Positions 3,763-50,076 of a DNA stretch of 64,000 nt are shown here, piece by piece. The translations under genes were made by a program, and so were the position numbers. The stretch's first letter is position 1. The number at the start of each line of letters is the position of its first letter. The stretch is from positions 1,214 to 65,213 of the IMG/VR virus record IMGVR_UViG_3300032236_000300; one strand, 5' to 3'. Source of the DNA: a virus (taxonomy: Duplodnaviria > Caudoviricetes). The notes beneath the pieces were generated by a model. It saw nothing but the letters and a program-made list of their open reading frames with translations, searched no databases and was not told the DNA's origin.

Positions 3763-4764
3763 ATGCCATTACCAGAGTTTAAAGATGGGAAGTTTGTTTC
3801 CGATGGGGAACTAGAAGACGCCCAAAACACTATTGAAGACGATAAGTTTGAAGTAGATATTGAAGACGATACACCGCCAGAAGATCGCCGCCGCAAGCCC
3901 GATCCAGAAGGCCCTCCCGCCGACCCGACAGAAGAAGAGTTGTCGAGCTACGACGAGAAGGTGCAGTCGCGTATTAAGAAGTTCACCCGTGGTTACCACG
4001 ATGAACGCCGAGCAAAAGAAGAAGCCCTACGCGAGCGCAAAGCGGCAGAAACCTTTGCTAAACAAGTATTTGAAGAAAACAAACGTCTTCAAAAACAACT
4101 AGCTGATGGCAGCAAAGTATTCATTGAGCAATCTCAATCATCTGCGGACTTAGAGTTGGCAAGCGCCAAAAAGAAGTACAAAGAGGCTTATGAGAACGGC
4201 GATGTAGACGCTATTGCCGATGCTCAAGCAGAGATTGCTAAAGCAACTTTGAAGTTGGATAGAGCTCAAGGGCTAAAACCTATCGAAGTTGAAGAACGTA
4301 ATTTTGTCCCTGCTAAGTCAGATGAACCTCAGATTACTCCTCGTACCCAAAAGTGGATTAAAGCCAACAGCGACTGGTGGGGAGTAGATGAAGAGATGAC
4401 TATGGCTGCTATGGGGCTTGACAAAAAGTTAACTAAAGAGTATGGTGCGAACTATGTAGGTACTGAAGAGTACTTCAAAACCATCGATAAAACGATGCGC
4501 AAAAGATTTCCTGAGCATTTTGAAGATGCTCAGAGCTATGAGGATGACGAGCCGCCTCCAAGAAAAAGATCGTCAGAACCGGTTGATGAGGATGATGAAC
4601 CCCCACGCCGTGCAAAACCAGCGTCTGTAGTAGCTCCGGCTTCACGCAGCACGCCGCCAACGCGTATCCGACTTAAGGCATCTGAAGCTGCGATTGCTCG
4701 CCGCCTTGGTGTCCCGATCGAAGAATATGCGAAACAGGTTGCTCAACTAAAGAGAGGTAATTGA
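3763..4764 (+). CDS. Probable capsid scaffolding protein
   Basis: Acidic, coiled-coil 333 aa upstream of the capsid genes; C-terminal IARRLGVPIEEYAK helix. Confidence 0.6.
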   Translation: MPLPEFKDGKFVSDGELEDAQNTIEDDKFEVDIEDDTPPEDRRRKPDPEGPPADPTEEELSSYDEKVQSRIKKFTRGYHDERRAKEEALRERKAAETFAKQVFEENKRLQKQLADGSKVFIEQSQSSADLELASAKKKYKEAYENGDVDAIADAQAEIAKATLKLDRAQGLKPIEVEERNFVPAKSDEPQITPRTQKWIKANSDWWGVDEEMTMAAMGLDKKLTKEYGANYVGTEEYFKTIDKTMRKRFPEHFEDAQSYEDDEPPPRKRSSEPVDEDDEPPRRAKPASVVAPASRSTPPTRIRLKASEAAIARRLGVPIEEYAKQVAQLKRGN

Positions 4765-6136: not shown

Positions 6137-7048
6137 ATGGCTATTTCACGCGCACAACTACTTAAGGAACTCCTGCCCGGCTTGAACGCATTGTTCGGTC
6201 TTGAGTATGCTCGCTACGGCGAAGAGCACAAAGAGATCTACGAAACAGAGACATCTGAGCGTTCTTTCGAAGAGGAAACTAAACTGTCTGGCTTCTCAGC
6301 CGCTCCTGTCAAGAATGAAGGCTCTGCCATCGCTTATGACAATGCGCAAGAGGCATGGACTACTCGCTATAACCACGAAACCATTGCTTTGGGTTTCTCA
6401 ATCACTGAAGAAGCGATTGAAGATAACTTGTACGACAGCTTGTCTGCTCGCTACACCAAAGGTTTGGCTCGCGCTATGGCTTACACCAAGCAAGTCAAGG
6501 GTGCATCAGTATTGAACAACGGCTTCTCTGCCCAATACGTTGGCGGTGATGGCGTATCTTTGTTCTCTACAGCACACCCCTTGGTCAACGGTGGCACCAA
6601 CAGCAACACTCCATCTACTCAAGCTGACTTGAACGAGACTTCTTTGGAAGCCGCCGTTATCCAGATCGCTGCTTGGACAGACGAGCGTGGCCTCTTGATC
6701 GCTGCTAAGCCCAAGAAGTTGATTATTCCTCCAGCACTCCAGTTCGTTGCAACCCGCTTGCTCGAAACTAAGTTGCGCGTTGGAACAAACAACAACGACA
6801 TCAACGCTATCGAGAACAACGGTTCTATTCCAGAAGGCTGGACTATCAACCACTTCTTGACCGACGTTAATGCTTGGTTCTTGACTACAGACGTGCCTAA
6901 CGGTTTGAAGCACTTCGTTCGTACCCCACTGCAAAACAGCATGGACGGCGACTTCGACACCGGCAACGTGCGCTACAAGTCACGTGAGCGTTACAGCTTC
7001 GGCTGGTCTGATCCATTAGGCGTTTTTGGCTCTTCTGGTTCGTTCTAA
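6137..7048 (+). CDS. Major capsid protein (Mu gpT-like, HK97 fold)
   Basis: N-terminus MAISRAQLLKELLPGLNALFG, internal GGDGVSLFSTAHP, C-terminus DFDTGNVRYKSRERYSFGWSDP; strong RBS; followed by a terminator. Confidence 0.88.
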   Translation: MAISRAQLLKELLPGLNALFGLEYARYGEEHKEIYETETSERSFEEETKLSGFSAAPVKNEGSAIAYDNAQEAWTTRYNHETIALGFSITEEAIEDNLYDSLSARYTKGLARAMAYTKQVKGASVLNNGFSAQYVGGDGVSLFSTAHPLVNGGTNSNTPSTQADLNETSLEAAVIQIAAWTDERGLLIAAKPKKLIIPPALQFVATRLLETKLRVGTNNNDINAIENNGSIPEGWTINHFLTDVNAWFLTTDVPNGLKHFVRTPLQNSMDGDFDTGNVRYKSRERYSFGWSDPLGVFGSSGSF

Positions 7049-19016: not shown

Positions 19017-19037
19017 TCCCATACAAAGGAAACCACT

Positions 19038-20162: not shown

Positions 20163-20173
20163 AGGAAAAATAA

Positions 20174-20706: not shown

Positions 20707-20709
20707 GGT

Positions 20710-21993: not shown

Positions 21994-22217
21994 AATGGGA
22001 TTTAAAAGCAATCGTCACACTTATTGCTTGTGTGGCATTGATGGAAGTAGTGACCTCAATGGTCTGGATGTTTGTTCAAGCAATCCTTGACCCAACAGTT
22101 GATGACAAAGTTGTGTTTGATATTGTTGGGCCTGCTTTCCAAACTATTGTTGGTGGTTTTATTGGTCTAATTACAGGTATTCACATTGGAAAGGCATCAA
22201 ATGACGCAACTGAGTGA
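21990..22217 (+). CDS. Holin-like two-TM protein
   Basis: Two hydrophobic segments; lies between the spanins and the endolysin. Confidence 0.45.
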   Translation: MKWDLKAIVTLIACVALMEVVTSMVWMFVQAILDPTVDDKVVFDIVGPAFQTIVGGFIGLITGIHIGKASNDATE

Positions 22218-22656: not shown

Positions 22657-22657
22657 T

Positions 22658-30309: not shown

Positions 30310-33300
30310 CATACGAATTCGTTCCTCTCTCCAAGGCTGAACCCACAGAGGCAAAAGACCAAGGAGAAGGTGGCGAGTTTACGTTTGTCCCATTAGCCGC
30401 CGCAAAATCGCCTATACAAGAAAGAATGACCGTTCCTACGAGTGTGGGGACGTCTGGCGTCAGCATGGCTGAAGCGGAAGAAGAGCCTACCCGTCCAGTT
30501 CCTAAAGGCAAATCTATATTTGAGCGCGGCGTCAAGATGGAGCCGCCTACTGTTGACTACCAAAAGAACTTGGAGACTATGCGCCAGAGCGGTAGTCCTG
30601 AGTCGGTTATGTTTACTCCCGGTCGTCAGCTTGAATCTATCGACCAACAGATCATGCGTGGCGAGGCACGCAGAACAAGAGAGCAGGAGATTGCTGCTAA
30701 GAAAGCCGCCGAGCTTGCTGCAACTAAAGAGTTTTTACTTAAACGTCAAGCCGAACAAGAAGGCTATGGCGTTGGTTCTTTTGGGCAAGACATTGCTGGC
30801 GCTACAGCTAAAGGCATTGTAGGTTTAGGGCAGTCTGCTGCTGGTCTAGCGCAACTTGCTACTGGCTGGATTCCCGACGATCCAAATATCAACCCGCTCC
30901 AGATAGGCCAGTGGGGGAAGATGCTGGACAAGCTTGGCTACGACCCCGAAGCCACAAGTCAATTTATATCTGGGCTGCAATCTCCACAAATGCAACTGCA
31001 ACAAAACGAAGTTGCTCAAGCCAAAGGATTCTTTAATACCGCCGCAGCACTTGCAGTAAACCCGCTTGCGCTGCTAGATTCGATTGTTGAGTCTCTCCCC
31101 GGAACTGTTGGTGCAGGTGCTGCTGGTGGTAAGTTCGTACGGTATCTTGCAGGTAAAGCTACGCAAGAAGCAGCAGAGCGCGGGCTAACAGGTGCAGCCG
31201 CACAGAAGTTTATTGCCGAAAAAGTAAAAGAGAAATCTACTCAAATTGCTGCCGCCGCAAGTGCCGCCGAGGGCGCACAAACCGCTGGTTCTATTGCTGA
31301 CCAAGCCCGTGCCGCTGGTAAAGATTGGGATGAATACGTAGCTCCTGCGTTAGCGGCGGGGTTTGGCACGGCGGCTATTGGTGTTGTTGCTGGTAAAGCG
31401 GCGTCCAAACTTGGTATCGGTGACGTAGAAACTGAAATTGCTGCACGCTCTGCGGGCGTCAAAGGGGTTGGTGTTGGCGCTGCTGACCAGTCTCTAGCAA
31501 AAGTTGTACGTAATGAGTTGATTAAAGAAGGCGTCTTTGAAGAGATGCCTCAGTCGGTGCAAGAACAAATCTTTACTAATCTTGCTACTGGTCGTCCTTG
31601 GAACGAAGGTGTAGAAGAAGCCGCAGCACAAGGCTTAATGGCTGGTGCTGGTATGGGTGGCGGGCATGCTGTTATTGCTCGTGCGTTGCAACGCACTGGT
31701 GAAATCGTCCAAGAGCAGACTAACAAATTAGCTCAAAGTATCGTTGACCAACGTCAGCCGTCGGCAGAAGAACTGGCTAAGTCCAAAGGATTCCTGCGCA
31801 AAGAAGGAACCAAAAAAGAAAAGTCTGAAGACGACCTTATCGCCGACTTGGATAAATACAACCAAGAACAGATAGACGCTGAAGAGGCCGCGCCTCCACA
31901 GACTGAAGATGAAAAGTTAGCCGCTAAAGAAGCCGCCGACGAACGTGCAGCGATCCAAACTACGCACGAGTTCGTGCCTCTGCAAGAAGACCAAACAGTC
32001 CCAGAGCCTCCCGACATCTTTGGTAAGAAAGAAGAAGCCGCACCTGCCGCTGTTCAAGAAGCCGCACCTGCCGTTGCTGAAGAAACAGATCTGCAACGCG
32101 CAGATAGATTAGACGCCGAGGCTGCTGAACAAGAGACGGCTCAAGAAGCCCGTAAAGCCAACGCTCGCGAAATTGCCAAAACTAACTTTGATGCCGCTAT
32201 TGACCAAGTAGATAGCCTTGAGTTCAATGGCGATCTTAATGCGGCCTTTGATTCGTATAAACAAAACACGCTCGATACATTGGCTGAGAAAGGCGAGAAA
32301 GATCAGTATGTATCCGATGCCGCCGACCGTGAATTTGATCGGTTAGTTGCAGAGCACAACGAAAAACAGACGCCTACAGCAACTCTTGAGCCAGTAAAAG
32401 ATCAAGAAACAATCCAACAAATTAGACGTGAAAACCCTACAAATGGCGTTTCACTTGGGGATTGGACAGATCCAAATACAGATAACTTATGGGACGGCGC
32501 TAACTATTATGCTGGTATCGCCCAAAGATATGGTGGCCCTACTAGCCTTACGCCCGTCACTACATTAGCGGAAGCTAAACAGGCTGAAGCAAACGGCAAA
32601 TCTATATATGCAGTAAATAAACCAGAGCCAGCTACGGTTGAAGAACTACAAACGCAGCGCGAAAACGCACGTTTGGAGATGATTAAGCTGCATACCAAAA
32701 CTGGTAATAGGCCAAAGACGGGTACCAAGAAGCGTGAAACCTATGATGCTTTACAAGAAAAGCTAAACAAACTAGACGTCGAAATTGCTAAAGTAGCAAA
32801 ACCAGAAGCACCAGAGTTTAACGGCGAACCCGCCCCTATCAGTACTGATCTTGTAGTTATAACTCCACCTGCGGCAGTACAACAAGTACCTGCGCTACCA
32901 CCACCCGATCAAGCATCACCTGATCTACAGGCAGTCTACGACTCCGCCGCCGCTAAAGCAAAGAAGGCGTGGGAAGTTTTATCACTTGCTGATGAAGCAC
33001 TATCTCAAGAAGAAGACCCTTCTGATGGTAGCCAGCCTTCTCCTGTAAAACTTAAACGCTTAACTGATGAGCGAAACAAAGCACATGCTGAGTGGGAAGT
33101 ATTAGAGAAAGAAGCCGAGAACGCATTTACTGCGCTTACTCACGAGCCCTACACCGTAGAAGGTGAAGTCCGTATCGTAGAAGAAACCGTAGCGCCACAG
33201 CTTGCGGCTCTTCCTGCACCTGATGTAAATCGCCTAGAGAAGCACTATGGCTTAAGCGCAGGCTCGCGTGACTTCGTTCTCAAAGTTAAAGAAGATATTG

Positions 33301-36300
33301 TTCGTTACGCCAACGAAGGTGCCGAGGTTATTGCCGAAGCCATCCGTGACATTATTGGCAAACTGCATGCAGGTGTCTTAACTGCAGCAATTATCTTTAA
33401 CCCAACAAACGTAAGCACCGCCGAGTTTGTTACTTACCCAACAGCCACAATTGCCATAACTGAACAGGTACTTGCTGACTTGCCAGCGGGCACGGAGATG
33501 ATGTCGGACGGCGCTAAGCAGTCTTATAAAGTTCTGTACCCATCTATCAAAGATAAGCTGCAAGCAAACAACAAAATCCTTACGATCGTAGATAAACCCA
33601 AGGGTCACACGTACGTGTTCAATCCTGACGGTACTCTATTGTTGCGTACCAAGACGCTGACAGGACTGGCCCCCGGGGACTTCTATAAAGGTAACAACAA
33701 CCTTCCACAGAACCGTATCACCCCCGCAGGGTTCTTCACATTCGGCCTGCGTGATGCAATGCGTAGCGTTGACGAGGCAAAGACTGCTGGCGAGTATGAC
33801 TTCGGCAAAGTGTTCGTGCTAGATAAAGTTATCGGCGGCGAATACAGCATGACCTTGATGCACTCGGTGTGGATGCACGAGTCCGACGCCGCTATGCGTG
33901 CAAAGGCTATTGCCAGTGAAAGCGAAACAGATTCACGCTATTCGTTTGGTTGCATCAACGTAAACAAACAAACCTATAAGTTCCTGATTGATAACCATCT
34001 CAAGCAAATGGATGGCTCATCGGTGTTTGTTGTTCCTGACAACCCTGCAAACTTAGCGTCTCTCCTATCGGGCAAGCCAGAGAACCGTGACGGACTTGAG
34101 CGTAATGTATTCACACCCCCAACAAAGACAGTAAACAGAACTATTGATTCTGCTACTACAACTCCAAACCTTGCATCTGCTGCAGCTGCGGACAGACGCA
34201 GGAATATGTTTAGAAGCATCGTTGCTAACGCGCTTCCAGACGAAGTTGGACCAGACCTTACCGAAGCTATTGCCCATAATCAAAGGGGCATAAACAAACT
34301 AGATGCGCTCTACAAAGACGGCAAGATTACTCCAGAGCAATACGCGGAAGCGATGCTCAAGATTAACGAGAGCATTAGAGAGCGTGCGGATAGAAGTCGT
34401 AGCAACAAGAGTAAACAGCGTGGATTCGGTCGTGTTGTAACCGCATTAGAAGATGCTAAGAAAGCTGGGCGCATTAGTCCAGAGACCGCCGACTTTGCTA
34501 TTTGGTTCTTGATTCAGAACCCCGCGCTTGCAGATGATCTAGCTATTAAGATCGCCCTCCCAAAAACAAAGAGGGAAAAAGAAGCTACTGAAGGTACTGC
34601 CGGAAACTACAACCCTATTGCAAAAATAGTTCGTTTAGTTACACGCAAAGCGCCGACACCGTTTGAGGCTGAGACAGAAACTGAACGCTACGCCGCTACT
34701 AAAGAAGACACGGCTGTTCACGAAATACTGCACCATCTTGAGCGTATGTTGCCCGTGCAAGTACGCCGTTTGATACGCAACGAATGGTCACGCCAGATTA
34801 GAGACAAGCTAAAAGAAGCAGCTAAAACTAAAAACACAGCGCTTCAGTTCTATCTAAATAACGTAATCAAAGCCAACACTGAGCAAGACATGGTTGCTTG
34901 GACGCTTGCGTCTAAGGCTATCCAAGATGGTGATGTGCCATACGAAATGTATGCGCTATTTAACCCTTCAGAATTCTGGGCGGTTAACGCATCTAACCTA
35001 CTGTCTGATCGCTACTATGCTGGCACTAAGTTCCAAAAAGCAAAACAATGGATGCGCGAGTTCATTGAAACGCTTAAATCTATATTCGGCTTGAGTAGCG
35101 ATGATCCGATCATCCAAGGTCTAAATGCTGTATTGCGTGGCGATGGCACTTTTGTATCCAAAGACATGCTTTCAGAAGGCAAGCCTGACCAAACATTTAG
35201 ACAGATTGTGCAGAAGGGTTTGCACCCTTCCGTAGTTGAAGCAATAAACAACAACGACATCAGCGGCGCTCTGCGTGCTGTAGCAAAGAACACATCTGGT
35301 ATCTACTCCGTGCTTGCCGCACGGTTGGCAGAACTGAACCTACCTACAACAATCGGCTTTAACCGTGAAAGAGAATTGGTACGCCAGCACATAGACAGCA
35401 AGTCTAGTCAGCAGCAAGTCCAACTCTTTACCTACGTACGCCGTGCGTACCCAGAACTATTTGAAAAGTATTTCAAGAACTACGATCGGTCTGAGAGTTT
35501 AGAACTTGTTTATGCAGGTTTGAAAGAACTGTACAAACCCCAGTACAACACATCTGCGCTGAATATGCAGTTGGCGCTAGTGCGTGATGAGTTTGATAAG
35601 GCCATGCCCGGCCTCACGCATTCTGGTTTGTACATGCCTAGCTCTGATGCAATCAGCCTTAGAACTAGTGGTCAATTCGGCTTAACTAACCGCGTGTTCT
35701 TACATGAGGTTGTGCACGCCGCTACTGAGTTTGTATTGCGTGACACCAAAGGTCTGAGCCAACGCCAACGCGAAGCAGTAACTCAGTTGTATGTCATGTA
35801 CAACTATGCAAAGAGCCAACTAAACATTGAAGCCTATGGGTTCAAGAACGTATTTGAGTTTGTTGCTGAAGCACTAACCAACGCTGACTTCCAAAAGAAA
35901 CTACGTACCGTCGAATACGAACCCGCACAAGGGTCGGTCTACAACTCGCTGTTGCGTTTTGCAATGAAAATGTTCGGTGCCGACAACGTAGCTGGCGCAA
36001 CAATAATCCAAGCCAACGAGATCTTCTCTGCATTCCGTCCAGCTGGTGCAGTAAATGCACCGTTGCGGTTTGGCCCACCGATCAAGGGTAAGAAGGGCAG
36101 ATACAAAAAAGGCCCGATTACAAGTAAGTGGCGTACCGCCGAGGATGCTGCAGTTCGTTTAGCTGATGCACTCAAAGGTGCAATGAGTAGTATTCCAGAA
36201 GCATCTAGTCTAGCTAGTGCGGTTCGCCGTGCGGGTAAATTTAAATTACGTAACCTAGAGTTCCCATTCTTAGGCTTACGGATGCTCAAAGAGGATGTAC

Positions 36301-39260
36301 AGCAAAGTAATCCTTACATTGGCTCGGCGGTCAAGATCATTACAGATATGTTGGCGTACCGTGGACGTATGCTCAGCCGTGCTAAAGACACTATTCAGAA
36401 GTGGGCACAGATGCAGTTGGACGCGCCTGCACAATCCCGCTTGATGTCACGCGTTATGTTGGAAGCTACTATTCAAGGTATCGAAGTCGATCCTCTAGGC
36501 CCCGGCTACGTAAACCCATTGACTGCTGGACCTAACGATAAAGTTGCACCGCAACCGCTTGTCGACGCATGGAATAAACTTGATCCTAAGTTCCAAAACT
36601 TGTATCGTGAAGTACGTAACTACTATACCGATCTGCTCAAGGCTACTATCCGTGAAATGAAGATGCGGGTGTTGACAAGCGGCAAAACATCGGCAGAGAA
36701 GAAAGACCTAATACGTAAGATTAACAAGCAGTTTGCTGAAGAAAACTTTAGCCGCCCATACTTCCCATTACGGAGATTTGGTGATTTCTGGTTCCAAGTT
36801 ACCGCTAACGGACGTACCGAGTTCTACACATTTGAAAACCATATCGATCGCGATTTAGCGTACGACAAACGGTACGCTGAATTATCTAAAGGCAATGTGA
36901 CTCAACAGGCTGCGGCTGAAAGCATGCGTGCTGGCAATACCATATCGCAGTTGTACACCGACAATAAAAATATTGGCGGCGCTCTAAAAGATGTCAATGA
37001 ACTTATCGATAGTATTTCTGACACAGTGACTACAGTTCAGGGAGGCCAAGCCTTTACTACTAAGAAGTCGGCTGATGCTATCAAGAGTGAAATTAAAGGT
37101 GCTATTGACCAACTAGTCTACGTTCTTTTGCCACAGCAAAGTATGCGTAAGATGTTTATTAACCGCCGCGCTATCCAAGGTGCAAGCGGTGACATGTTGC
37201 GTGTGTTTGCGGATACATCTGTACGAGCGGCATATCAGCAGTCTCGGTTTAAGTTTGTTCAGCCATTCCTAAACAACATGAGCAACGCTCATGATTACAT
37301 CCGTGCGTTTGTACAAGGAAAACGTCAGACTGAAGCACTCGACTACATCAACGAAGTTGAGAAACGCTACAAGCATATCTTTAGTATGGAAGATAAGAGT
37401 GCGTTAGCTAGGTTTGCTGGCGGCGCTAACCAAATGATGTTCATGGTCAACTTGACTGCGCCTGCTAGTGCGTTGATGAACGTCTTGGCATTCCCAATTA
37501 TGGCTGAGCGCACCATAGGCGGTAAGTACGGTATCGTTAAAGCAAATGCTGTAATGGCTAAATACTTTGGTCAGTACATGCGGACACTACCTAAACGCAC
37601 TCTTGTGCCTATGGGCAAAGGTCTAAAAGCTGAAATCTCGTGGCCTTCTATTGTGGAAGGTGGCTACCTGAAGGGTGCATCTGCCCGTGCTGCGCAGAAG
37701 TTTGCCGACGACGGCGACATTAACGTATCGCAAACCAGCGACGTGTTTGATTTTGCAGAGCGTCCATCTGAGTTATATAGCAACGGGATGTTTAGCCGAG
37801 TCATGCAAGGCATAGCCATGCCATTCCATCAGCTTGACCGCCTTACCCGTGAAGTAACGCTGATGTCTGTATTTGATTTGGCATACGAACAGTACCTAAC
37901 TGCTGACAAACGTGACGAGCGTGGCGTTATCCAACGTGATACCAAGACAGGTAACCCATTAAAGTACACAGAGGAAGAAGCATTTAACGCGGCGATCGAA
38001 GATGCGCGTGATGCGGCGGCGGCTTCGCTTGGTGAATACCTACGCCAACTTAAAGGTCGTGCGTTCTCAGGGCCTGTCGGTGCGCTTGTGATGCAGTTCA
38101 AGCAAGTGAGCGTTACGATTTTCCGTGCTATCTATCGTGATATGTGGCTGGCGTTTGGCGCACCGTTGACAACAGCAGAACGGGACGAGTTCAAGAAGTT
38201 CTTGACCGAACAGTACAAAGGCGCCCCAAATGCTACACAACTTGTAGAACAGCAGATAAAAGAATACGAAGCCTACCAAAAAGAAATTCACCGCGAAGCC
38301 TTCCGCAAGGTAGTCATCATCAATGCAACTGCGTTCTTAATGGCCGGTGCAGAAGGTACGCCTTTGTATTTCTTAGTATCGTTACTACCAGCGATTGCTA
38401 GAGTATTTGCTCCAGACGGCGAAGACTGGGATGACTTTGAGACTTGGTTCTTCAATATGCTAATGAATGATTTTAGTGGAGCTGTTAGCGAACTAGCGAT
38501 GCAGTCTGGCATGGACGAAGAAAGCGCGGAAGCATTAGCTAAGAAGGCCGCGCATGCTGTTGCACGCGGAATCCCTGCGGCTGTAACTAACTGGAGTTTG
38601 ACCGAACGTATTGGTATAAACCCCGGGGAGATGCTCTTCCGTAACGCACGCTACTACGCTGACGCTAAGCAAGAACTGCAAGATATGGTTATCAGTAACC
38701 TCGGCGCGTTCCCAAGTTACATGCTTGATAACGTACCTACTGCTTACCAACTTGTACAGCAAGGACACTACGAGCGTGCCTACGAAAAGCTGTTCCCTGC
38801 AATTGCCACTAAGCCAGCCGTTGCTTATCGATTTAGTGAAGAAGGTGCTAAACGTATTTCGGGCAAAACTGTCTTGCACAAAGATGAGTTCGATAAGCTA
38901 GACATTGCGGCACAGGCTGTCGGTATCCGCCCAGAAAAGCTAACTTTAGTAGAGCGTGCAAGCTCAGCGGCATCAGAGAAGATGCTTAGATTGAATAACA
39001 AAAAGTCTCAGTTGTTGGACCGCATTTGGGTAGAGCATTTGGCTAACAGTCCAGCCGAGAACATAGCACGACAAGAGTTTTACAAGTTTGCTTATAAACA
39101 CCCTAACTTTATTGATGACCCAGAAAAAACTATCGAAGATAGTTTTGAGAAGAAGTACGAAGGGTTGGCAAGCGCAGGTGTGAATCTTGGCGTGGATATC
39201 CCAGAGAATCTATTGCCAGAGGTTGCGCCGATCCTGTCGGGTGCAAAGAAGTTGCGTTGA
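30306..39260 (+). CDS. Giant polyvalent ejection protein (L,D-transpeptidase-like domain and two HEXXH zincin motifs)
   Basis: 2984 aa; IVDK...TG...ITPAG.F...MH...SFGCINV; AVHEILH...EFWA; LHEVVH...EFVAE; PYFPLRRFG. Confidence 0.75.
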   Translation: MTYEFVPLSKAEPTEAKDQGEGGEFTFVPLAAAKSPIQERMTVPTSVGTSGVSMAEAEEEPTRPVPKGKSIFERGVKMEPPTVDYQKNLETMRQSGSPESVMFTPGRQLESIDQQIMRGEARRTREQEIAAKKAAELAATKEFLLKRQAEQEGYGVGSFGQDIAGATAKGIVGLGQSAAGLAQLATGWIPDDPNINPLQIGQWGKMLDKLGYDPEATSQFISGLQSPQMQLQQNEVAQAKGFFNTAAALAVNPLALLDSIVESLPGTVGAGAAGGKFVRYLAGKATQEAAERGLTGAAAQKFIAEKVKEKSTQIAAAASAAEGAQTAGSIADQARAAGKDWDEYVAPALAAGFGTAAIGVVAGKAASKLGIGDVETEIAARSAGVKGVGVGAADQSLAKVVRNELIKEGVFEEMPQSVQEQIFTNLATGRPWNEGVEEAAAQGLMAGAGMGGGHAVIARALQRTGEIVQEQTNKLAQSIVDQRQPSAEELAKSKGFLRKEGTKKEKSEDDLIADLDKYNQEQIDAEEAAPPQTEDEKLAAKEAADERAAIQTTHEFVPLQEDQTVPEPPDIFGKKEEAAPAAVQEAAPAVAEETDLQRADRLDAEAAEQETAQEARKANAREIAKTNFDAAIDQVDSLEFNGDLNAAFDSYKQNTLDTLAEKGEKDQYVSDAADREFDRLVAEHNEKQTPTATLEPVKDQETIQQIRRENPTNGVSLGDWTDPNTDNLWDGANYYAGIAQRYGGPTSLTPVTTLAEAKQAEANGKSIYAVNKPEPATVEELQTQRENARLEMIKLHTKTGNRPKTGTKKRETYDALQEKLNKLDVEIAKVAKPEAPEFNGEPAPISTDLVVITPPAAVQQVPALPPPDQASPDLQAVYDSAAAKAKKAWEVLSLADEALSQEEDPSDGSQPSPVKLKRLTDERNKAHAEWEVLEKEAENAFTALTHEPYTVEGEVRIVEETVAPQLAALPAPDVNRLEKHYGLSAGSRDFVLKVKEDIVRYANEGAEVIAEAIRDIIGKLHAGVLTAAIIFNPTNVSTAEFVTYPTATIAITEQVLADLPAGTEMMSDGAKQSYKVLYPSIKDKLQANNKILTIVDKPKGHTYVFNPDGTLLLRTKTLTGLAPGDFYKGNNNLPQNRITPAGFFTFGLRDAMRSVDEAKTAGEYDFGKVFVLDKVIGGEYSMTLMHSVWMHESDAAMRAKAIASESETDSRYSFGCINVNKQTYKFLIDNHLKQMDGSSVFVVPDNPANLASLLSGKPENRDGLERNVFTPPTKTVNRTIDSATTTPNLASAAAADRRRNMFRSIVANALPDEVGPDLTEAIAHNQRGINKLDALYKDGKITPEQYAEAMLKINESIRERADRSRSNKSKQRGFGRVVTALEDAKKAGRISPETADFAIWFLIQNPALADDLAIKIALPKTKREKEATEGTAGNYNPIAKIVRLVTRKAPTPFEAETETERYAATKEDTAVHEILHHLERMLPVQVRRLIRNEWSRQIRDKLKEAAKTKNTALQFYLNNVIKANTEQDMVAWTLASKAIQDGDVPYEMYALFNPSEFWAVNASNLLSDRYYAGTKFQKAKQWMREFIETLKSIFGLSSDDPIIQGLNAVLRGDGTFVSKDMLSEGKPDQTFRQIVQKGLHPSVVEAINNNDISGALRAVAKNTSGIYSVLAARLAELNLPTTIGFNRERELVRQHIDSKSSQQQVQLFTYVRRAYPELFEKYFKNYDRSESLELVYAGLKELYKPQYNTSALNMQLALVRDEFDKAMPGLTHSGLYMPSSDAISLRTSGQFGLTNRVFLHEVVHAATEFVLRDTKGLSQRQREAVTQLYVMYNYAKSQLNIEAYGFKNVFEFVAEALTNADFQKKLRTVEYEPAQGSVYNSLLRFAMKMFGADNVAGATIIQANEIFSAFRPAGAVNAPLRFGPPIKGKKGRYKKGPITSKWRTAEDAAVRLADALKGAMSSIPEASSLASAVRRAGKFKLRNLEFPFLGLRMLKEDVQQSNPYIGSAVKIITDMLAYRGRMLSRAKDTIQKWAQMQLDAPAQSRLMSRVMLEATIQGIEVDPLGPGYVNPLTAGPNDKVAPQPLVDAWNKLDPKFQNLYREVRNYYTDLLKATIREMKMRVLTSGKTSAEKKDLIRKINKQFAEENFSRPYFPLRRFGDFWFQVTANGRTEFYTFENHIDRDLAYDKRYAELSKGNVTQQAAAESMRAGNTISQLYTDNKNIGGALKDVNELIDSISDTVTTVQGGQAFTTKKSADAIKSEIKGAIDQLVYVLLPQQSMRKMFINRRAIQGASGDMLRVFADTSVRAAYQQSRFKFVQPFLNNMSNAHDYIRAFVQGKRQTEALDYINEVEKRYKHIFSMEDKSALARFAGGANQMMFMVNLTAPASALMNVLAFPIMAERTIGGKYGIVKANAVMAKYFGQYMRTLPKRTLVPMGKGLKAEISWPSIVEGGYLKGASARAAQKFADDGDINVSQTSDVFDFAERPSELYSNGMFSRVMQGIAMPFHQLDRLTREVTLMSVFDLAYEQYLTADKRDERGVIQRDTKTGNPLKYTEEEAFNAAIEDARDAAAASLGEYLRQLKGRAFSGPVGALVMQFKQVSVTIFRAIYRDMWLAFGAPLTTAERDEFKKFLTEQYKGAPNATQLVEQQIKEYEAYQKEIHREAFRKVVIINATAFLMAGAEGTPLYFLVSLLPAIARVFAPDGEDWDDFETWFFNMLMNDFSGAVSELAMQSGMDEESAEALAKKAAHAVARGIPAAVTNWSLTERIGINPGEMLFRNARYYADAKQELQDMVISNLGAFPSYMLDNVPTAYQLVQQGHYERAYEKLFPAIATKPAVAYRFSEEGAKRISGKTVLHKDEFDKLDIAAQAVGIRPEKLTLVERASSAASEKMLRLNNKKSQLLDRIWVEHLANSPAENIARQEFYKFAYKHPNFIDDPEKTIEDSFEKKYEGLASAGVNLGVDIPENLLPEVAPILSGAKKLR

Positions 39261-44044: not shown

Positions 44045-44072
44045 ATTATACTCTATTTGTTGACAGTGTCAA
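44045..44072 (-). promoter_or_regulatory. Sigma70 promoter with palindromic -35
   Basis: Minus strand TTGACA-16-TATAAT; palindrome TTGACAgTGTCAA at 44060-72. Confidence 0.75.
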
Positions 44073-45610
44073 GAGTTAATTTCACTTTTATACAGGTCGA
44101 TGATCTTGTTGTGAAAGTCCAATTTGTTTTGCAACATACCGTAGAGTTTTGTTTCTACAGGACTACCTTCAAGATGCACGACTGTCATAGGATTGCGCTG
44201 ACCCGGCCTATCGATACGTGCGTTTGCTTGCAAGTATGTTTCTATCGACGTGACAGGAGCGTACCACACGATTACGTTAGCGGCTGTTAGGGTTACTCCG
44301 TGTGCCGCCGCTTGTGGTTGAATCAAAAGTACTCGTGGCTCATCTTGTTCTTGAAACCTTTTAAAGATGTCGGTGCGCTTTGACACACTTACAGAGCCAT
44401 TGATAATCTCTGACGTTACCTTGTTCTTTGTTAGGAAGTCTTGTATTAAATCTAACGTGTGCGTGAATGGTACAAACACTAGAACTTTATGGCTTGCCTC
44501 TTCAATAACTTCTAACAAAATGTTTAATCGATTCGATGCATCAAACTCAATTACATTCTTGGTATCTGTATATACAGCGCCGCAAGAGATTTGTAATAGT
44601 TTGTTTAGTTGAGCCGCCGCATTCACGGCAGAGACTTCATCGCCAACTGCTTCGATCAGCATTTCTTTCTTGAGGTCTTTGTAGTACTTGGACTGCTGTG
44701 GTGTTAGTGGTGCGAATCGTGAAGTGTGTGTCACATCAGGCAGATCAATACAGTCTTTCTTCTCAAACCGAATCGCTGGCTGGAGCATGTTGTGCACGAT
44801 GCTTTGTGCTTGTGGTTTTGGAATCCATTTGAATCGAGTCAGTTGATACATCACAACATCGCGGTAAGCCGTGTATAAGTGCGGGGCTTTTGCAGGTACG
44901 CATAGTTTGGCTAGGCCATAAGCATCTAGTGGAGACTGAGCTGCGGGTGTACCCGTCATCATCCATATCCAAGTATCAGGAGTGACGATTCTTTTTAACG
45001 TTTTAAACCGCTCGGTCCTAGAGTTCTTGTAAGCGTTTGCTTCGTCAATGATGATGAGGTCAAACCCACCAGCCTTGAGTTCTTCTTCAACAACGCTCAC
45101 GCCGTCGTAGTTAATGATGACGTACTCGGCACCGCCCTCGACGATAGCCTTGCGTTTCTTGCGGTCGCCGTGCGCCACATCTACATGGCGGTGAACAGCA
45201 AACTTAAACAAGTCGGCTTGCCATGCGGCTTGCATGATTGAGACGGGGCAGATAACTAGCACGCGACTGATGTAGCCCTGCGCTATTAAATAGTCCGATG
45301 CCCATATAGCCGATGCCGTTTTGCCAGTACCCTGCTCGTTAAAACAAAAGGCGCGTGGGTGTAAGGTCAGAAAGGATGCGGTATCCTTTTGATGGTTCAT
45401 TGGTCTATGGAGTCCGGGCCAGTCATAGTCACGCTCTATGGGAGACGGCACGTCAGGTAGCCCCAATACTTTAAGCATCTGTGCTTCCTTCAACCCCCAA
45501 TGAACAGCCACCGAATCCTCGGTGTACTCGGCACTCTTAGCAATCGTCGAGAGAATCTTCTGTGGCTCTTCAGTCTGTATGACTAGGTATTTGTTTTCAA
45601 CTACTTGCAT
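44069..45610 (-). CDS. SNF2-family helicase
   Basis: EQGTGKT, IIDEAN, MTGTP, HGVTL and QANARIDRPGQ motifs. Confidence 0.9.
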   Translation of the reverse strand: MQVVENKYLVIQTEEPQKILSTIAKSAEYTEDSVAVHWGLKEAQMLKVLGLPDVPSPIERDYDWPGLHRPMNHQKDTASFLTLHPRAFCFNEQGTGKTASAIWASDYLIAQGYISRVLVICPVSIMQAAWQADLFKFAVHRHVDVAHGDRKKRKAIVEGGAEYVIINYDGVSVVEEELKAGGFDLIIIDEANAYKNSRTERFKTLKRIVTPDTWIWMMTGTPAAQSPLDAYGLAKLCVPAKAPHLYTAYRDVVMYQLTRFKWIPKPQAQSIVHNMLQPAIRFEKKDCIDLPDVTHTSRFAPLTPQQSKYYKDLKKEMLIEAVGDEVSAVNAAAQLNKLLQISCGAVYTDTKNVIEFDASNRLNILLEVIEEASHKVLVFVPFTHTLDLIQDFLTKNKVTSEIINGSVSVSKRTDIFKRFQEQDEPRVLLIQPQAAAHGVTLTAANVIVWYAPVTSIETYLQANARIDRPGQRNPMTVVHLEGSPVETKLYGMLQNKLDFHNKIIDLYKSEINS

Positions 45611-45947
45611 TTAGTTTGTCTTTTAGTACGTAGATTTGGGTATAAGAAGAAATATCTGACTCTGAAAGCAACAAGCCTCGCGCATGTGTTTCTTGTGCTA
45701 CTCGCATGTCGTCGCCAGTTTCATCCATCCCCCACTTCTTTCTAAGCGAATGAAACGTGATTGGTTGATCGCCATATAACAAAAGCCATGCGGCTTTAAG
45801 CTGATCGTTTGTCATGTCACGAGCAAAGTGTCCTACCACTGTAGTCTTTATGTCTTCAAACCGCATCGTATAGTCCATAGACCTAGGGTCAGACCAACCA
45901 AACTCATACCGCCCTGTTGCCTTGTATTTCATTGTCGCCGTACTCAT
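45597..45947 (-). CDS. Hypothetical protein carrying a capsid C-terminal-like peptide
   Basis: MSTATMKYKATGRYEFGWSDP...; shares a C-terminal domain with 45944..46351. Confidence 0.65.
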   Translation of the reverse strand: MSTATMKYKATGRYEFGWSDPRSMDYTMRFEDIKTTVVGHFARDMTNDQLKAAWLLLYGDQPITFHSLRKKWGMDETGDDMRVAQETHARGLLLSESDISSYTQIYVLKDKLNASS

Positions 45948-46351
45948 GTCTTGATCCTGCCTATTGGTACCCACTGATCGGTTAAGTTGTGGGTTTCTAT
46001 TTCACCAAATGCAATCAAACGATGCGCCACAACATTTAGATAGTCGTCGTCCATCGGCTTTTCCATAGACACCCAACGTGTTCCATACGCAAGTATCCAA
46101 GCGGCACGAAGTTGTTCCACGGTTAACTCAAATGCAGGGTGCTCTTCCAAGTCAATCTTTCTAAGGCGAGCCTGTGGTGGGTATGTGGTTTGTTTTAGGG
46201 TGTGGTTTTTTAACATGTTGGCTACGGTGGCGCTGTTACCGAGGTGAGTTATGTATGGGCCAGCAGTGATAGTGGCGCTACCATTACCACCATTACTAAC
46301 CTCTAACATCGAAGACCCATAAAACATCGCATCAACAGATGCTTTTTCCAA
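45944..46351 (-). CDS. Hypothetical protein, paralog of 45597..45947
   Basis: TVEQLRAAWILAYG versus TNDQLKAAWLLLYG. Start uncertain; TTG 46351 chosen to avoid overlap with the HNH gene. Confidence 0.55.
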   Translation of the reverse strand: MEKASVDAMFYGSSMLEVSNGGNGSATITAGPYITHLGNSATVANMLKNHTLKQTTYPPQARLRKIDLEEHPAFELTVEQLRAAWILAYGTRWVSMEKPMDDDYLNVVAHRLIAFGEIETHNLTDQWVPIGRIKT

Positions 46352-46355
46352 TGAC

Positions 46356-46622
46356 TCACTTAACCCCGTGGTCGGATCGGCGAGCATATGATCTATTACT
46401 GCTTGCGCTTGTGACGCGCAGGTTTGATCTTGTGGTTTTTCCGCCTTTACTAAGAGGCTTTTTATGATCGACATCTTTTCCATCTCCCTTGTGAACTAGT
46501 CCTGCTTTTTCCATAATCGCCCGCGCTTTGTTGCGCTCGGCTCTTTTCTTCTTAACGGCGGGCGTGCCGTCGTATGTTTCGTATTCGTGCTTGTATGGTC
46601 TAGGTTTATTGACGTATGGCAT
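46356..46622 (-). CDS. HNH endonuclease
   Basis: DVDHKKPLSKGG....NLRV.....N. Confidence 0.75.
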   Translation of the reverse strand: MPYVNKPRPYKHEYETYDGTPAVKKKRAERNKARAIMEKAGLVHKGDGKDVDHKKPLSKGGKTTRSNLRVTSASSNRSYARRSDHGVK

Positions 46623-46631
46623 GGTGGCTCC

Positions 46632-46883
46632 TTAGTAGTTTGCGGTATTGCCTTTGTAGACGATACGGTAGTTTTGGATTTCACGGTCAATGATTTCGCG
46701 TGAGTTGTTGCGAGTGACATCTACCGCAATATTTCTAATGTGTGTCGCAAGTGAACCCCAAGGGTTTCTTGCAATTTCTTCCATCACCGTATCGACAATC
46801 AATTTCTTCACGTCGTCTTGCAACTTCATGTAAGCGGCGGCGGCATTGTTTGGGTCGGCTAAGTCTTCTGCGGTTTCTATCAT
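46632..46883 (-). CDS. Hypothetical protein
   Basis: RBS GGAGG. Confidence 0.55.
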   Translation of the reverse strand: MIETAEDLADPNNAAAAYMKLQDDVKKLIVDTVMEEIARNPWGSLATHIRNIAVDVTRNNSREIIDREIQNYRIVYKGNTANY

Positions 46884-46892
46884 ATTTCCTCC

Positions 46893-47558
46893 TTAAGTTT
46901 TCTTACTGTTGTGCTCACAGTCGGTTACAGGGCACCAACCACGGCAGGTGAAGTTTGGTCTAGGGTTCCAAACATCCGTAATCATCGCACTCTCTAGCTG
47001 ATTTGTCTCGGGTATCCATTTGCCCCAAGCCTCAGTCTGTTGGTCTGCAGTGAATTCGGCAGGAACTAAATCTTTGACTACCAAAAACATCAGGCCAGCC
47101 TTGATGGATTTGATTTGCGGGAAGTGTTTGAAAGTCAAAAGGGACAGCAATTCTAGTTGCTTCTTGTCCGCATACCGACTGGACTTGCTAGTTTTGTAAT
47201 CAACAATTCGTGCCTTCTCGCCATCAATAACAAGCAGGTCGGCGATACCACGAAACCAAACATTCTTGTCTCTAAATCCGCAGGGCTTCATGTCCTTGGT
47301 TAAGCCCATCTCGTACTCGCACAACTTCTCGCCCGACAAGGCTTTCAGTGGGTCTAAGAACGGCTGGATGTAAGCGTACTTTTCTGGTATCGGAGTACCA
47401 TCACGGATGTATTCTTCTGCTGCCTTATGAACCGCACTGCCGTAGAGCAAGTGTTCCTGTGGTGGCTCGACGATATCTTTGACGATACGCATCCTGTGGT
47501 ACTTGCGTGGGCATTGTTGGAACAGCGAAATACTGCTGTAAGACCATGTGTAATTCAT
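46893..47558 (-). CDS. PD-(D/E)XK exonuclease (Cas4/RecB-like)
   Basis: SYSS...F.QCP, GSAVH, GIADL, DYKT, QL and C..CP..DC. Confidence 0.85.
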   Translation of the reverse strand: MNYTWSYSSISLFQQCPRKYHRMRIVKDIVEPPQEHLLYGSAVHKAAEEYIRDGTPIPEKYAYIQPFLDPLKALSGEKLCEYEMGLTKDMKPCGFRDKNVWFRGIADLLVIDGEKARIVDYKTSKSSRYADKKQLELLSLLTFKHFPQIKSIKAGLMFLVVKDLVPAEFTADQQTEAWGKWIPETNQLESAMITDVWNPRPNFTCRGWCPVTDCEHNSKKT

Positions 47559-47765
47559 TTATTTTCTACCTAATGCTTTTGCAAAGTGGTCGTCGTAGCG
47601 TCTACGCATCTCATCAAGCGTAGCGGCGGCACCTGCGTTTTCTTGTTTGACTTTCTCTTCTACCAGTTTGGCAAAGGCTTCAACGTCAGTAACGCCACCA
47701 GTCACAATGCCGTCGGCAATAGAAAAGCCAGCCTGTCTAGCCATCTCAATGATTTCATCTTTCAT
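47559..47765 (-). CDS. Hypothetical protein
   Basis: DEIIEMARQAG...EAFAKLV small phage-protein pattern. Confidence 0.55.
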   Translation of the reverse strand: MKDEIIEMARQAGFSIADGIVTGGVTDVEAFAKLVEEKVKQENAGAAATLDEMRRRYDDHFAKALGRK

Positions 47766-49624
47766 ACCAAACTCCATTTCTCAATAGACATCTTCTTACC
47801 GCAGTCGGCGTAACTTTTACCTGCGCCAATCTCACATGCCAAAGGCAAAGTCTCAGCCCACTTGGGGCGCCAACGCATACATTCGTTTACATATTTGATA
47901 GCTTCATCGCGCTCTGATTCGGGAACTACACACGCCACGGCATCATGCACAGTTAAAACTGGCTTGTAGCGTTTCGCTATCCGTAGCATCTGCTCAGCAA
48001 TCACACAGCGTGCGAGTGCTTGGCACAAATTCTCGACTACCTTACCGCCGTAGATTCTGACCACACCCTTGCGTGTATCGTAGACATACTGGATTCGACC
48101 ATGAACATCAACCTCGCCATTAGCACGCAGGCTCATATACTTGAGAGGCAAACCGCTAGGAAGATCGTAGCCAATTCCGGGGAGTACGCTTACTGCCTGT
48201 ACTTGTTTACCAAACGTAGTAGTGACAAGCTTCTCGCTTGACAAGGCTTCCAAAGTTCTTTGTCCTTCATCCCACAACGCGGGGATATGCGGGAACTCTT
48301 GGCGGTAAACCTTCAAGATGTGTTGGCACATAGGGTCTTCTAAATTAACCCCAAAGTTTCTTAGTTGCAACTGGAACTTGCGCCAACCCATGCCGTAACC
48401 CGCACCAAGAATCGTGGTCTTACCTACGAAACGCTCGGACTCATTGATATCTTCAACTGGCTTGCCATATATCTTTGCCGCCATGATTTTGTACACATCT
48501 CGGCCTTCTGCAAACGCAGTTACCAAATCGTTCTGCCCCGATAGCCATGCAACGATACGCGCTTCGATCTGTGAAGAGTCGGCATCAATCATGACGTAAC
48601 CATCAGGCACAACGATCGCTGATTTAAGTGGTGACTTGCGTGGCAAGTTCTGTAGGTTTAGCTTGTCGTCCCCACCCCAACGCCCTGTGTGCGCGGCATA
48701 GTATCTGAGGGGGACTGGGAGGCTACCACGCTTCGCTATGGAGATAAACCTTTGCGTGCGTGTCTCTTCTAGTGTGGACTTTGTCCCAAGGCGTGCGGCA
48801 ACAAGTGCTTGCACTCGCTCGTCCCAGTGGTCTGCCAGTGCTTTAAATCCTTCGTCGCTCTTAGCCAAAGCAAGCGCTTGCTTGCCTGTTGTGGGGCTAA
48901 CCTTCATGGGTGGTGGCACACCATACTCAATCAATCGCTCGGCAAACTTCTGATTGGACATGAGCACCTCTCTGTCGGCGCACGCCTCGGCGATCAAGGC
49001 TTCCTTCTTCTCCTGTACCTGCACAAGATGTTGCTCAAGTATCGGCAGGTCTAGACGTAGCGTCGGCTCTGTGAACATACGCAGAGTCATGTCAACTAGC
49101 CGTAGCTCTGGCTTCTTGAAGTTTGCTTGCAGAATATTGAATAGGTCGTACGTCAGCTTGACGTCGTTCTTGCAGTACTCGCCGTACTGCGCCAAATCCT
49201 GCGCAGAAAAATCCATCCTGCGTTTGCCCATAGCCGCGACTACCTCAGTACCCTTCACCCCCAAGCCATAACGCTCGGCGGCTTTTGCTAGGCTGTTGCC
49301 AACCTCTGTGCCGTCAATAGCACGTAGCATTGCTAGAGTATCGAGAAGTACTTTTGGCCTAATACCAAACCGCCAAGAAAGGATAGCACCATCAAACATG
49401 CAATTATGAGCAAGCAGAAAAGAACTATCCCAGTCAAAGTTAGATAGAAACTCACTGGTGTCGGCGTGATTTCCTGTGAACCATTGTGTTGTGTCGTCAT
49501 TTACTTTTACTCCTACACCGATGACCTCAAAGCGGTCGTCGCGAATGTACTCTTCAGTTGTTAATTTGGATAGAGAGAAGTCTTTGTCGTAGAACGTCTC
49601 GAAGTCAAGGGTGATTAGGTTCAT
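47762..49624 (-). CDS. polA: DNA polymerase, family A, with 3'-5' exonuclease
   Basis: DFET, AHN..FD, YC..D; HTGRW, NLQNLP, DSSQIEAR, GKTTILGAGYG and TVHD. Confidence 0.92.
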   Translation of the reverse strand: MNLITLDFETFYDKDFSLSKLTTEEYIRDDRFEVIGVGVKVNDDTTQWFTGNHADTSEFLSNFDWDSSFLLAHNCMFDGAILSWRFGIRPKVLLDTLAMLRAIDGTEVGNSLAKAAERYGLGVKGTEVVAAMGKRRMDFSAQDLAQYGEYCKNDVKLTYDLFNILQANFKKPELRLVDMTLRMFTEPTLRLDLPILEQHLVQVQEKKEALIAEACADREVLMSNQKFAERLIEYGVPPPMKVSPTTGKQALALAKSDEGFKALADHWDERVQALVAARLGTKSTLEETRTQRFISIAKRGSLPVPLRYYAAHTGRWGGDDKLNLQNLPRKSPLKSAIVVPDGYVMIDADSSQIEARIVAWLSGQNDLVTAFAEGRDVYKIMAAKIYGKPVEDINESERFVGKTTILGAGYGMGWRKFQLQLRNFGVNLEDPMCQHILKVYRQEFPHIPALWDEGQRTLEALSSEKLVTTTFGKQVQAVSVLPGIGYDLPSGLPLKYMSLRANGEVDVHGRIQYVYDTRKGVVRIYGGKVVENLCQALARCVIAEQMLRIAKRYKPVLTVHDAVACVVPESERDEAIKYVNECMRWRPKWAETLPLACEIGAGKSYADCGKKMSIEKWSLV

Positions 49625-50076
49625 TGTTTAAGTTGTGCCCACGGATCAGGCAAGGTGCTTTGTTGTGGTGGGATAAATTGCGACTGTTGCATTAACCTGC
49701 TTTGCGCGTATGATTTTTTCAGTTCCTCTTCAAGTACCGACAGTGCTTGGTCTGCCACTGCTTTTGTTGTTAACAGCGTTTTCGGCCTTCCCTCTTTCTC
49801 TTCCCTGTAGTCCCACCTTGTTTTAGCGGGAGACATAGCACGCTCAAGAATCTCTTGGTAGGCTATTGCTTTCCTAAACTTTTTAAGATGCGCCCTGTAC
49901 TCGGTACTGATACAGTACTTTTCTATAGAAGTGAAGCGGTCAAACCCGTCCCCCTTTACAAGTGAATCCCACTTGCTATCGTCAATAACAAACTCTTCCG
50001 CAAAATGATTGTCCATGCGTTCAAGCAAGAGTTTTACCTCGTCAGCGCAAAAGCGCCGTAGTAGTTTTATTTTCAT
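49621..50076 (-). CDS. Hypothetical protein with a coat-protein-like peptide
   Basis: Coupled ORF; contains TLLTTKAVADQALSVLEEEL. Confidence 0.6.
   Translation of the reverse strand: MKIKLLRRFCADEVKLLLERMDNHFAEEFVIDDSKWDSLVKGDGFDRFTSIEKYCISTEYRAHLKKFRKAIAYQEILERAMSPAKTRWDYREEKEGRPKTLLTTKAVADQALSVLEEELKKSYAQSRLMQQSQFIPPQQSTLPDPWAQLKQ

Follow-up and report, generated by a model that had tools for sequence, protein, structure and literature searches.

Virion-protein segments copied onto the N-termini of a family of small phage proteins encoded in the replication module

The N-arm, the E-loop, the C-terminal strand of the P-domain and the C-terminus of the scaffold provide the subunit–subunit and scaffold contacts in HK97-fold capsids. 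A short terminal peptide may also place a small protein relative to such a shell, as do the T4 capsid-targeting sequence and the encapsulin cargo peptides, which to our knowledge neither copy shell strands or scaffold nor are exchanged among paralogs. T4-type capsid-targeting peptides are N-terminal and are removed by the prohead protease, and the proteins that carry them are found in virions. Capsid-derived sequence turned against the capsids of related viruses is likewise known from the Gag-derived restriction factors Fv1 and enJS56A1, Gag proteins that are complete or nearly so and are encoded by the host. Here, we describe two tandem open reading frames, ORF A and ORF B, from a stretch of 64,000 nucleotides (nt) of DNA from an uncultured aquatic phage (Duplodnaviria; Caudoviricetes; bases 1214–65213 of IMG/VR record IMGVR_UViG_3300032236_000300), hereafter the window. 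They are members of an undescribed family of small phage proteins, in which an N-terminal peptide precedes a C-terminal acidic carrier domain of about 75 amino acids (aa) with a predicted winged-helix fold. In many members this peptide is copied from a segment of a virion protein that makes assembly contacts. In contrast to Fv1 and enJS56A1, the virus itself encodes pieces of 16–30 residues on a foreign domain.

In the solved interface of phage 80alpha, the C-terminal helix-and-hook of the scaffold binds beside the N-arm helix of the capsid protein, and SaPI1 CpmB competes at this N-arm site via a C-terminus homologous to that of the helper scaffold, according to Dearborn et al. (2017, PMC5644958). 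As described there, CpmB is encoded by a satellite, carries its mimic C-terminally behind a dimerization domain and redirects capsid size. The carriers are likened to CpmB by architecture, not by sequence: S-type relatives copy the scaffold C-terminus and N-type relatives the N-arm, that is, both sides of the 80alpha interface. Unlike CpmB, they belong to a complete phage and not to a helper-dependent satellite, ORF A copies the major capsid protein (MCP), the mimic is placed at the N-terminus of a predicted winged helix even where scaffold is copied, and the mimics are swapped among at least five virion segments. The literature consulted, including that on HTVC023P and mostly taken at the level of titles without supplements, described no phage-encoded mimic of a capsid terminus. 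Because of this, and because family libraries and the ESM Atlas gave no match, the combination of carrier and copied peptide appears to be new as an architecture, with a function that we infer.

ORF A and its copy of the capsid C-terminal strand

ORF A (45597..45947, minus strand; positions are those of the window) is read as a protein of 116 aa from the ATG at 45947. This is most likely the true start: it shares an ATGA with the TGA stop of ORF B, and an AGGA lies 8 nt upstream of it; gene calls of homologs also start at the ATG corresponding to 45947 (116-aa forms). An alternative GTG start at 45974 gives a reading of 125 aa. The protein is of the C-type, with a copy of the C-terminal strand of the MCP followed by a linker and the carrier. 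The copied peptide, TMKYKATGRYEFGWSDPR (residues 5–22 of the 116-aa form; 45882..45935, minus strand), is termed the bait. Its counterpart is the C-terminal β-strand of the MCP (303 aa; 6137..7048, plus strand), residues 267–297 of which (6935–7027, plus strand) form the source segment.

The preliminary description of this DNA had claimed that ORF A bears a peptide resembling the phage's own capsid C-terminus, and three comparisons bear this out. In an all-against-all blastp of 94 crude ORF calls from the window (20,846 aa), residues 4–30 of the 125-aa reading matched MCP residues 267–293 with 14 of 27 positions identical (37.4 bits, E 1.5e-6), the sole alignment shorter than 70 residues among the best 40. 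A hidden Markov model (HMM) of the MCP family, built from 26 sequences, picked out just two proteins of the window, the MCP itself and ORF A (E 1.7e-10 for the latter; next best 0.41); residues 5–33 of the 125-aa reading were the only part aligned, at HMM positions 268–296. Alignment of the ORF A family with the MCP family by hhalign gave a probability of 97.5 and E 8.4e-12. At the DNA level the motif shares just 29 of 60 bases with the MCP gene, so the similarity is not that of a recent duplication. The peptide of ORF A and the C-terminus of the MCP are thus homologous.

Conservation of the peptide in homologs had been named beforehand as a point on which the idea would stand or fall, and the bait proved to be the best conserved part of the protein. 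Over 35 sequences, the bait had a mean pairwise identity of 0.71, compared with 0.55 for the carrier and 0.30 for the linker. Among 32 candidates, 30 homologs had E <= 0.01, and the motif was kept in all homologs except the chimera P0025, including members with 29–42% overall identity. In three of them the copy extends into the terminal G-[VI]-F-G-[SA] tail of the MCP. Residues that are invariant in the MCP (Y280, K281, R285, Y286, G289, D292 and P293) correspond to Y8, K9, R13, Y14, G17, D20 and P21 of the bait, all invariant or nearly so in the ORF A family. A test of the dN/dS type, also proposed beforehand, gave a proportion of synonymous differences (pS) of 0.78 and of nonsynonymous differences (pN) of 0.19 for the 16-codon motif (136 pairs of 17 DNA sequences), and thus a pN/pS of 0.24 with synonymous sites near saturation. 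The bait is therefore under purifying selection.

When viral contigs were searched with the alignment of the ORF A family, 80 loci were obtained. ORF A-like genes account for 14 of them; the other 66 are C-termini of MCPs of 277–320 aa, in which the motif lies 6–7 residues before the stop, one being cut by the contig end. Against named phages, tblastn (E <= 1) returned MCP C-termini and chance matches but no relative of ORF A. When one genome per prokaryote species was searched with two peptide patterns, an approach of limited sensitivity, 60 matches were obtained and none was confirmed. The ESM Atlas gave no usable match.

As modeled with AlphaFold2 (AF2; 35-row alignment, mean predicted local distance difference test score, pLDDT, of 73), ORF A has an unfolded N-terminus and a compact C-terminal domain. 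The bait is predicted to be disordered: pLDDT is below 50 for residues 1–10 and 12–16, and residues 1–22 are unfolded in the model. The full A- and P-domains of HK97-fold MCPs (about 300 aa) are absent, and the remainder of the protein models as a winged helix. ORF A is thus a carrier of a capsid fragment and not a capsid protein.

The bait was compared with the capsid proteins of the phage's own clade and of a sister clade whose members carry no such genes. It is identical to its own MCP at 13 of 26 positions and to eight own-clade MCPs at 10–14, as compared with 15–18 (median 17) for 65 sister-clade MCPs. The baits of two close relatives, G004 and G005, behave in the same way. The copy in ORF A may hence have come from the sister clade or be aimed at it. 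No covariation of the bait with its own MCP was seen.

The carrier domain and the segments joined to it

The carrier domain of ORF A (residues ~41–110; 45618..45827, minus strand) is modeled as three helices (47–58, 65–74 and 79–89) and a β-hairpin (93–98 and 103–108), with pLDDT values of 81–89 for these blocks. Three helices and a β-hairpin wing are likewise found in generic winged-helix proteins such as MecI/BlaI, MarR, ESCRT-II and RPA32C. In contrast to these, the carrier gave only weak and unspecific structural matches, belongs to no Pfam or PHROG family and is acidic. Foldseek matched it to generic DNA-binding and protein-binding winged-helix domains (E >= 0.14), with the best values against winged-helix regulators at a weak E of 0.14–0.7 and with fitting secondary structure; VIA-align ranked MecI best, also weakly (Z 4.8, root-mean-square deviation 4.4, 69 aligned). 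Over 13 domains the median net charge is -3 and the median isoelectric point (pI) 5.2, that of the ORF A carrier being -1; this acidity argues against a DNA-binding payload. Pfam, PHROGs and PADLOC-DB contained no family for ORF A or ORF B, and PADLOC gave no match at E <= 0.1 for these or for ORF C, a nearby gene discussed below.

A profile of the carrier (13 sequences, 78 positions) was searched against 1.84 billion representative sequences and matched 70 protein clusters at E <= 0.001; in 61 of them, 12 aa or more precede the carrier. These N-termini were scored against the MCP HMM with the best of 20 shuffled sets, 6.0 bits, as threshold. It was exceeded by 31 of the 61, at C-terminal positions (~275–301) in 26 cases, at the N-arm (2–41) in four and at the E-loop (51–75) in one. 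The N-terminus of P0153 is identical to the first 24 residues of the window MCP at 17 positions. By blastp, the four N-arm copies matched MCP residues 1–27 (6137–6217, plus strand) with E 2e-8, 1e-7, 1e-5 and 6e-4, and a fifth, in contig L173, had E 1.5e-5. Two E-loop copies, P0137 and P0146, matched residues 51–79 (6287–6373, plus strand) with E 0.004 and 0.003. Together with P0153, P0144, P0175 and P0191 they make up the N-arm and E-loop members. When viral contigs were scanned with P0153, MCP N-termini were recovered along with weak partial alignments (~26–29% identity) that were assumed to be MCPs.

Other segments are found in related contigs. The S-type N-termini occur on a neighboring carrier subfamily, and in all eight the best match in the window under composition correction was to residues 295–329 of the 333-residue scaffold-like protein; seven of the eight beat every one of 60 shuffles. 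The window itself has no S-type gene. As counted by hand, the S-type bait of G004 is identical to its own scaffold at 9 of 19 positions and to that of the window at 7 of 19, and that of G005 at 11 of 31 and 13 of 29, respectively. F-type baits have a motif that we take to be tail-fibre-like, a lead only as to its origin: tblastn gave 47 weak matches to phage records (E 0.04–5), annotated mostly as tail fibre or endosialidase chaperone, and the motif was not found among the proteins of the window. In many arrays, the first carrier gene has an N-terminus rich in Q, G, A and N (L011:2183-2641, L012, L013:2144-2644, L169:2577-3023 and L167:2349-2804). A copy of the ejection protein (27781–30309) was considered for these Q/G-rich N-termini and rejected as compositional: the uncorrected E of 3e-5 to 0.02 gave way, after correction, to one of four beating all 60 shuffles, and that marginally.

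ORF B (179 aa; 45944..46483, minus strand) is the tandem paralog of ORF A by virtue of the shared domain, which occupies residues ~107–175 (45959–46165, minus strand; cross-profile E 4e-7 and 2.6e-8 with ORF A). ORF B was also matched by a profile of the N-terminal part of ORF A (E 1.1e-4), but this was an artefact, because the alignment slice included the chimera P0025 with its ORF B-type N-terminus. The 75 homologs of ORF B share a conserved N-terminal stretch, a variable middle rich in Gly, Ser and Thr, and the carrier. A portal motif had been suspected in ORF B. The N-terminal profile does not list the portal (phrog_1216), the middle profile gives E 19, and the portal is absent from the eight best blastp matches; the motif was dropped for want of significant similarity to the portal of the window. 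Nor did the N-terminal and middle parts match the MCP or any other protein of the window significantly. An E-loop mimic was also rejected (best hhalign region MCP 42–65, E 0.12, probability 0.5), the middle matched the C-terminus of the 13785–14261 product (phrog_644) weakly by blastp (E 0.13), and tblastn of residues 33–105 against phages gave only chance matches (E >= 2).

The first 128 nt of ORF B (46356–46483) overlap the upstream HNH endonuclease gene in a different frame, over the part that encodes its catalytic motif, and the same overlap, of ~137 nt, is seen in L001, L002 and L009. Part of the N-terminal conservation of ORF B may therefore be imposed by the HNH frame. Start candidates are M1, M4 and M33.

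The carrier genes are arranged in arrays of two (window, L001 and L002), three (L009, L011, L012, L013, L165 and L169) or four (L167), located directly upstream of a SNF2 helicase gene and, where visible, downstream of an HNH gene. The order of HNH gene and array is shared by L001, L002, L009, L011, L012, L013, L165 and L169, and the helicase follows the array in L001, L002, L009, L011, L012, L013, L165 and L167. The carrier next to the helicase bears the C-terminal-strand copy in most contigs and the fibre-like motif in L166–L168 and L170, and the N-arm and E-loop members are, by eye, on this same carrier subtype. Since a single subtype bears strand, fibre-like, N-arm and E-loop baits, the baits have been exchanged on one carrier lineage. 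The idea that exchangeable virion peptides are displayed on non-structural ORFs is thus retained, with a constant carrier and in a broader form than first proposed; its portal and P22-coat examples are not.

Three copies of the domain are present in each of the three close relatives G003, G004 and G005, whose MCPs are 82–87% identical to that of the window. It was found in none of seven genomes of the sister clade that supplies most MCP matches, six of them rated at least 98% complete, and in none of five named relatives (MinM2, HTVC023P, DSL-LC04, CRP-902 and 023Pt_psg01). Such an accessory distribution is typical of conflict genes. The established features of the family are a constant small domain, conserved N-terminal copies of virion segments, and a replication-module location as tandem accessory genes.

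Genome context and neighboring genes

The virus record comprises 65,213 bases with direct terminal repeats and is rated complete. Its terminase, portal, scaffold-like protein and MCP are all encoded in the window. The nearest named MCPs are those of Synechococcus phage MinM2 and Planktothrix phage Pag-Yong1 (70% identity), followed by those of the Pelagibacter phages HTVC023P and HTVC027P (64%). The DNA polymerase is at most 34–36% identical to that of any named phage, and megablast matched nothing.

In the head module, the portal (845 aa; 621–3158, phrog_1216) is followed by the scaffold-like protein (333 aa; 3763..4764, plus strand), a putative scaffold by position, composition and phrog_28737, a family of unknown function. 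Its C-terminus (residues ~295–331; 4645–4755, plus strand) is the segment copied by the S-type carriers of related phages. Between the two genes lies that of a 152-aa protein (3294–3752, plus strand) with a weak match to GroES co-chaperonin (phrog_3188, E 2.8e-6). The MCP was assigned by PF25209 (Phage_capsid_4; E 3.3e-12, 47.7 bits against a cut-off of 27), Mu gpT (E 7e-10) and phrog_371. Its AF2 model has the HK97 fold, with an N-arm helix at residues 5–26, a poorly ordered E-loop at ~50–76 and the C-terminal strand at 278–290. Foldseek gave 295 matches at E <= 0.001, to HK97-fold capsids and encapsulins, with the D3, NF5 and HK97 capsids at the top. Against solved structures, a single-sequence search gave no match and a profile search only Mu gpT capsids at E 0.2. 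No prohead protease was recognized in the head module or in the window as a whole; protease–capsid fusion families were matched only through their capsid parts.

ORF A and ORF B lie within the minus-strand replication module. The array is bounded upstream by the HNH endonuclease gene (46356..46622, minus strand; phrog_4590, E 5.9e-23) and downstream by that of the SNF2-type DNA helicase (44069..45610, minus strand; phrog_62, E 4.8e-105), which shares 14 nt with the end of ORF A. An exonuclease (46893–47558, minus strand) and the DNA polymerase (47762–49624, minus strand) are encoded further upstream in the module. From this position, the carrier genes are probably translated before the late genes.

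ORF C (151 aa; 49621..50076, minus strand) is located immediately upstream of the DNA polymerase gene, its stop overlapping the polymerase start by 4 nt. A peptide resembling the N-terminus of a P22-type coat protein, from a different capsid family, had been claimed for it. Pfam P22_CoatProtein gave no match to ORF C at E <= 10, and PF11651 found no candidate across the whole 65,213-base record, while a control was matched in E. coli. The peptide in question (residues 100–119) is in a variable, partly deleted linker without conservation: over 24 homologs the mean pairwise identity is 0.38 in the peptide compared with 0.75 for residues 1–95, and the mimic was rejected. The N-terminal 95-aa domain has invariant C10 and C55 and matches no family; the tail, F-I-P-P-Q-x-S-T...D-P, is moderately conserved. 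By profile, ORF C has no carrier domain. It is unrelated to the carrier family and may be a polymerase accessory protein.

Several observations concern other parts of the window. The tail module (13145–24991, plus strand) encodes fibre-like proteins that resemble one another at 14290–15180, 15190–17520, 17801–18841, 19038–20162 and 22658–24991, and a pair of phrog_644 paralogs at 13145–13576 and 13785–14261. An 842-aa DNA ejection protein (phrog_4287) is followed by an ORF of 2,984 aa (30306–39260, plus strand), presumably a giant internal or ejection protein. Tandem paralogs at 61424–62041 and 62267–62956 (plus strand), with 32% identity over 227 aa (E 1.4e-33), form a duplicated cassette.

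Candidate roles of the carriers

We tentatively suggest, as the likeliest of the roles considered, that the carriers interfere with the assembly of capsids, with those of related co-infecting phages as the most plausible target. The copied peptide would dock, during procapsid assembly, on the surface normally taken by the original segment in a capsid–capsid or scaffold–capsid contact, and the carrier protein would therefore compete with the genuine subunit. Assembly would most likely be capped or misdirected as a result. Several points weigh against this suggestion. Binding of the bait to any partner is a step that we infer, and the sparing of the phage's own capsid is left unexplained. In the AF2 model of the MCP, the copied strand (278–290) sits in the protein's own sheet beside strand 257–269, so that the bait would not be an obvious ligand in trans for a folded subunit. 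The likeness of the ORF A bait to the sister clade may equally reflect retained ancestry and counts as one evolutionary event, and the pattern of self versus non-self in the S-type baits is inconsistent. Nor is a virion copy demonstrated for every member, since the origins of the ORF B N-terminus and of the Q/G-rich class are unexplained, and the early timing is read from gene position alone. Co-folding of the MCP with ORF A gave a score of 0.00 in two runs without controls and counts neither way on binding.

An origin by chance, or as a leftover without function from illegitimate recombination that involved the capsid gene, would be in line with the low DNA identity and with Karlin–Altschul arithmetic, by which the core match of 15 residues, taken alone, is near chance in an all-against-all comparison of one phage proteome. 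The hhalign score, the retention of the motif in distant homologs, the low pN/pS (at saturated synonymous sites) and the independent copying of other virion segments onto the same domain all speak against it, and we regard it as scarcely credible; as far as sequence data can, conservation has already refuted it. More serious, though still unlikely, is a role as an immune decoy or antagonist, in which the peptides would occupy host sensors (CapRel-, CBASS- or Lit-type) of unassembled capsid, scaffold and fibre proteins and let the late proteins go unnoticed. Accessory, variable and arrayed genes in an early operon are the typical pattern of anti-defense functions, and it is at termini and loops that unassembled subunits expose linear sequence. 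Mutants in capsid and scaffold escape CBASS, and a major capsid protein acts as the trigger of CapRel(SJ46), according to a 2026 review (PMC13728456). Nevertheless, an abortive-infection sensor would be expected to respond to an early-made copy of its trigger and not to be silenced by it. The bait agrees with its own MCP at no more than half of the 26 positions and is nearer to that of another clade, no PADLOC or known anti-defense family was matched, and it is assembly-contact elements in particular that have been copied, a selection not expected from the decoy idea. The evidence thus mildly favors interference at assembly interfaces over a sensor decoy.

Two further roles would direct the peptides at the phage's own particles. 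As an encapsidation tag, the peptide would guide the winged-helix domain into the procapsid for delivery to the next host, for which the T4 capsid-targeting sequence, encapsulin cargo peptides and cargo engineered onto the P22 scaffold C-terminus are analogs. Cargo-loading peptides are generally the most conserved part of their proteins, as is the peptide here, and encapsulins with bound targeting peptides are among the structural neighbors of the MCP model. Copies of the scaffold C-terminus and the N-arm would recruit cargo to the scaffold–capsid interface, as judged from the interface described in PMC5644958. Nevertheless, the acidic carriers are ill-suited to a place beside DNA, their genes are in the replication module and not in the late module, and a tail-fibre-like bait does not fit loading of the capsid interior. 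Three differently targeted paralogs per genome would be hard to justify, and phages with 64–70% identical MCPs manage without carriers; a tag is accordingly improbable. A self-directed timer or holdase, which would keep the sticky contacts of capsid and scaffold subunits made by the phage itself covered until assembly is due, follows the same interface logic as assembly interference and could draw on the S-type bait of G004, slightly nearer to its own scaffold than to that of the window. The accessory distribution, with the domain missing from the five named relatives and the seven sister-clade genomes, the variation of bait type among close relatives and a C-type bait that is not tuned to its own MCP make this role distinctly improbable.

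Assembly interference and host sensing may both be covered by a broader description, which could as readily hold as fail: a modular system of inter-viral or virus–host conflict, in which a phage-encoded winged-helix scaffold bears short virion peptides (capsid N-arm, E-loop and C-terminal strand, scaffold C-terminus and a fibre repeat), exchanged between tandem paralogs in the course of evolution, as competitive ligands of interfaces or sensors. If so, fragments of structural proteins would make up a library at the protein level that serves for weapons or decoys. Should the peptides compete at interfaces, a swappable set of assembly-interface mimics would be documented for the first time in a phage rather than a satellite, and the copied segments would be a clue, readable from sequence, to the exploitable contacts in HK97-fold capsid assembly. 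Should they instead be decoys, they would show which linear stretches of capsid, scaffold and fibre proteins serve bacterial immunity as epitopes. In both cases, the family offers natural minimal peptides of 16–30 aa from a group of aquatic phages that is very abundant and is related to HTVC023P-type phages, and the principle may be reusable for loading or blocking capsids.

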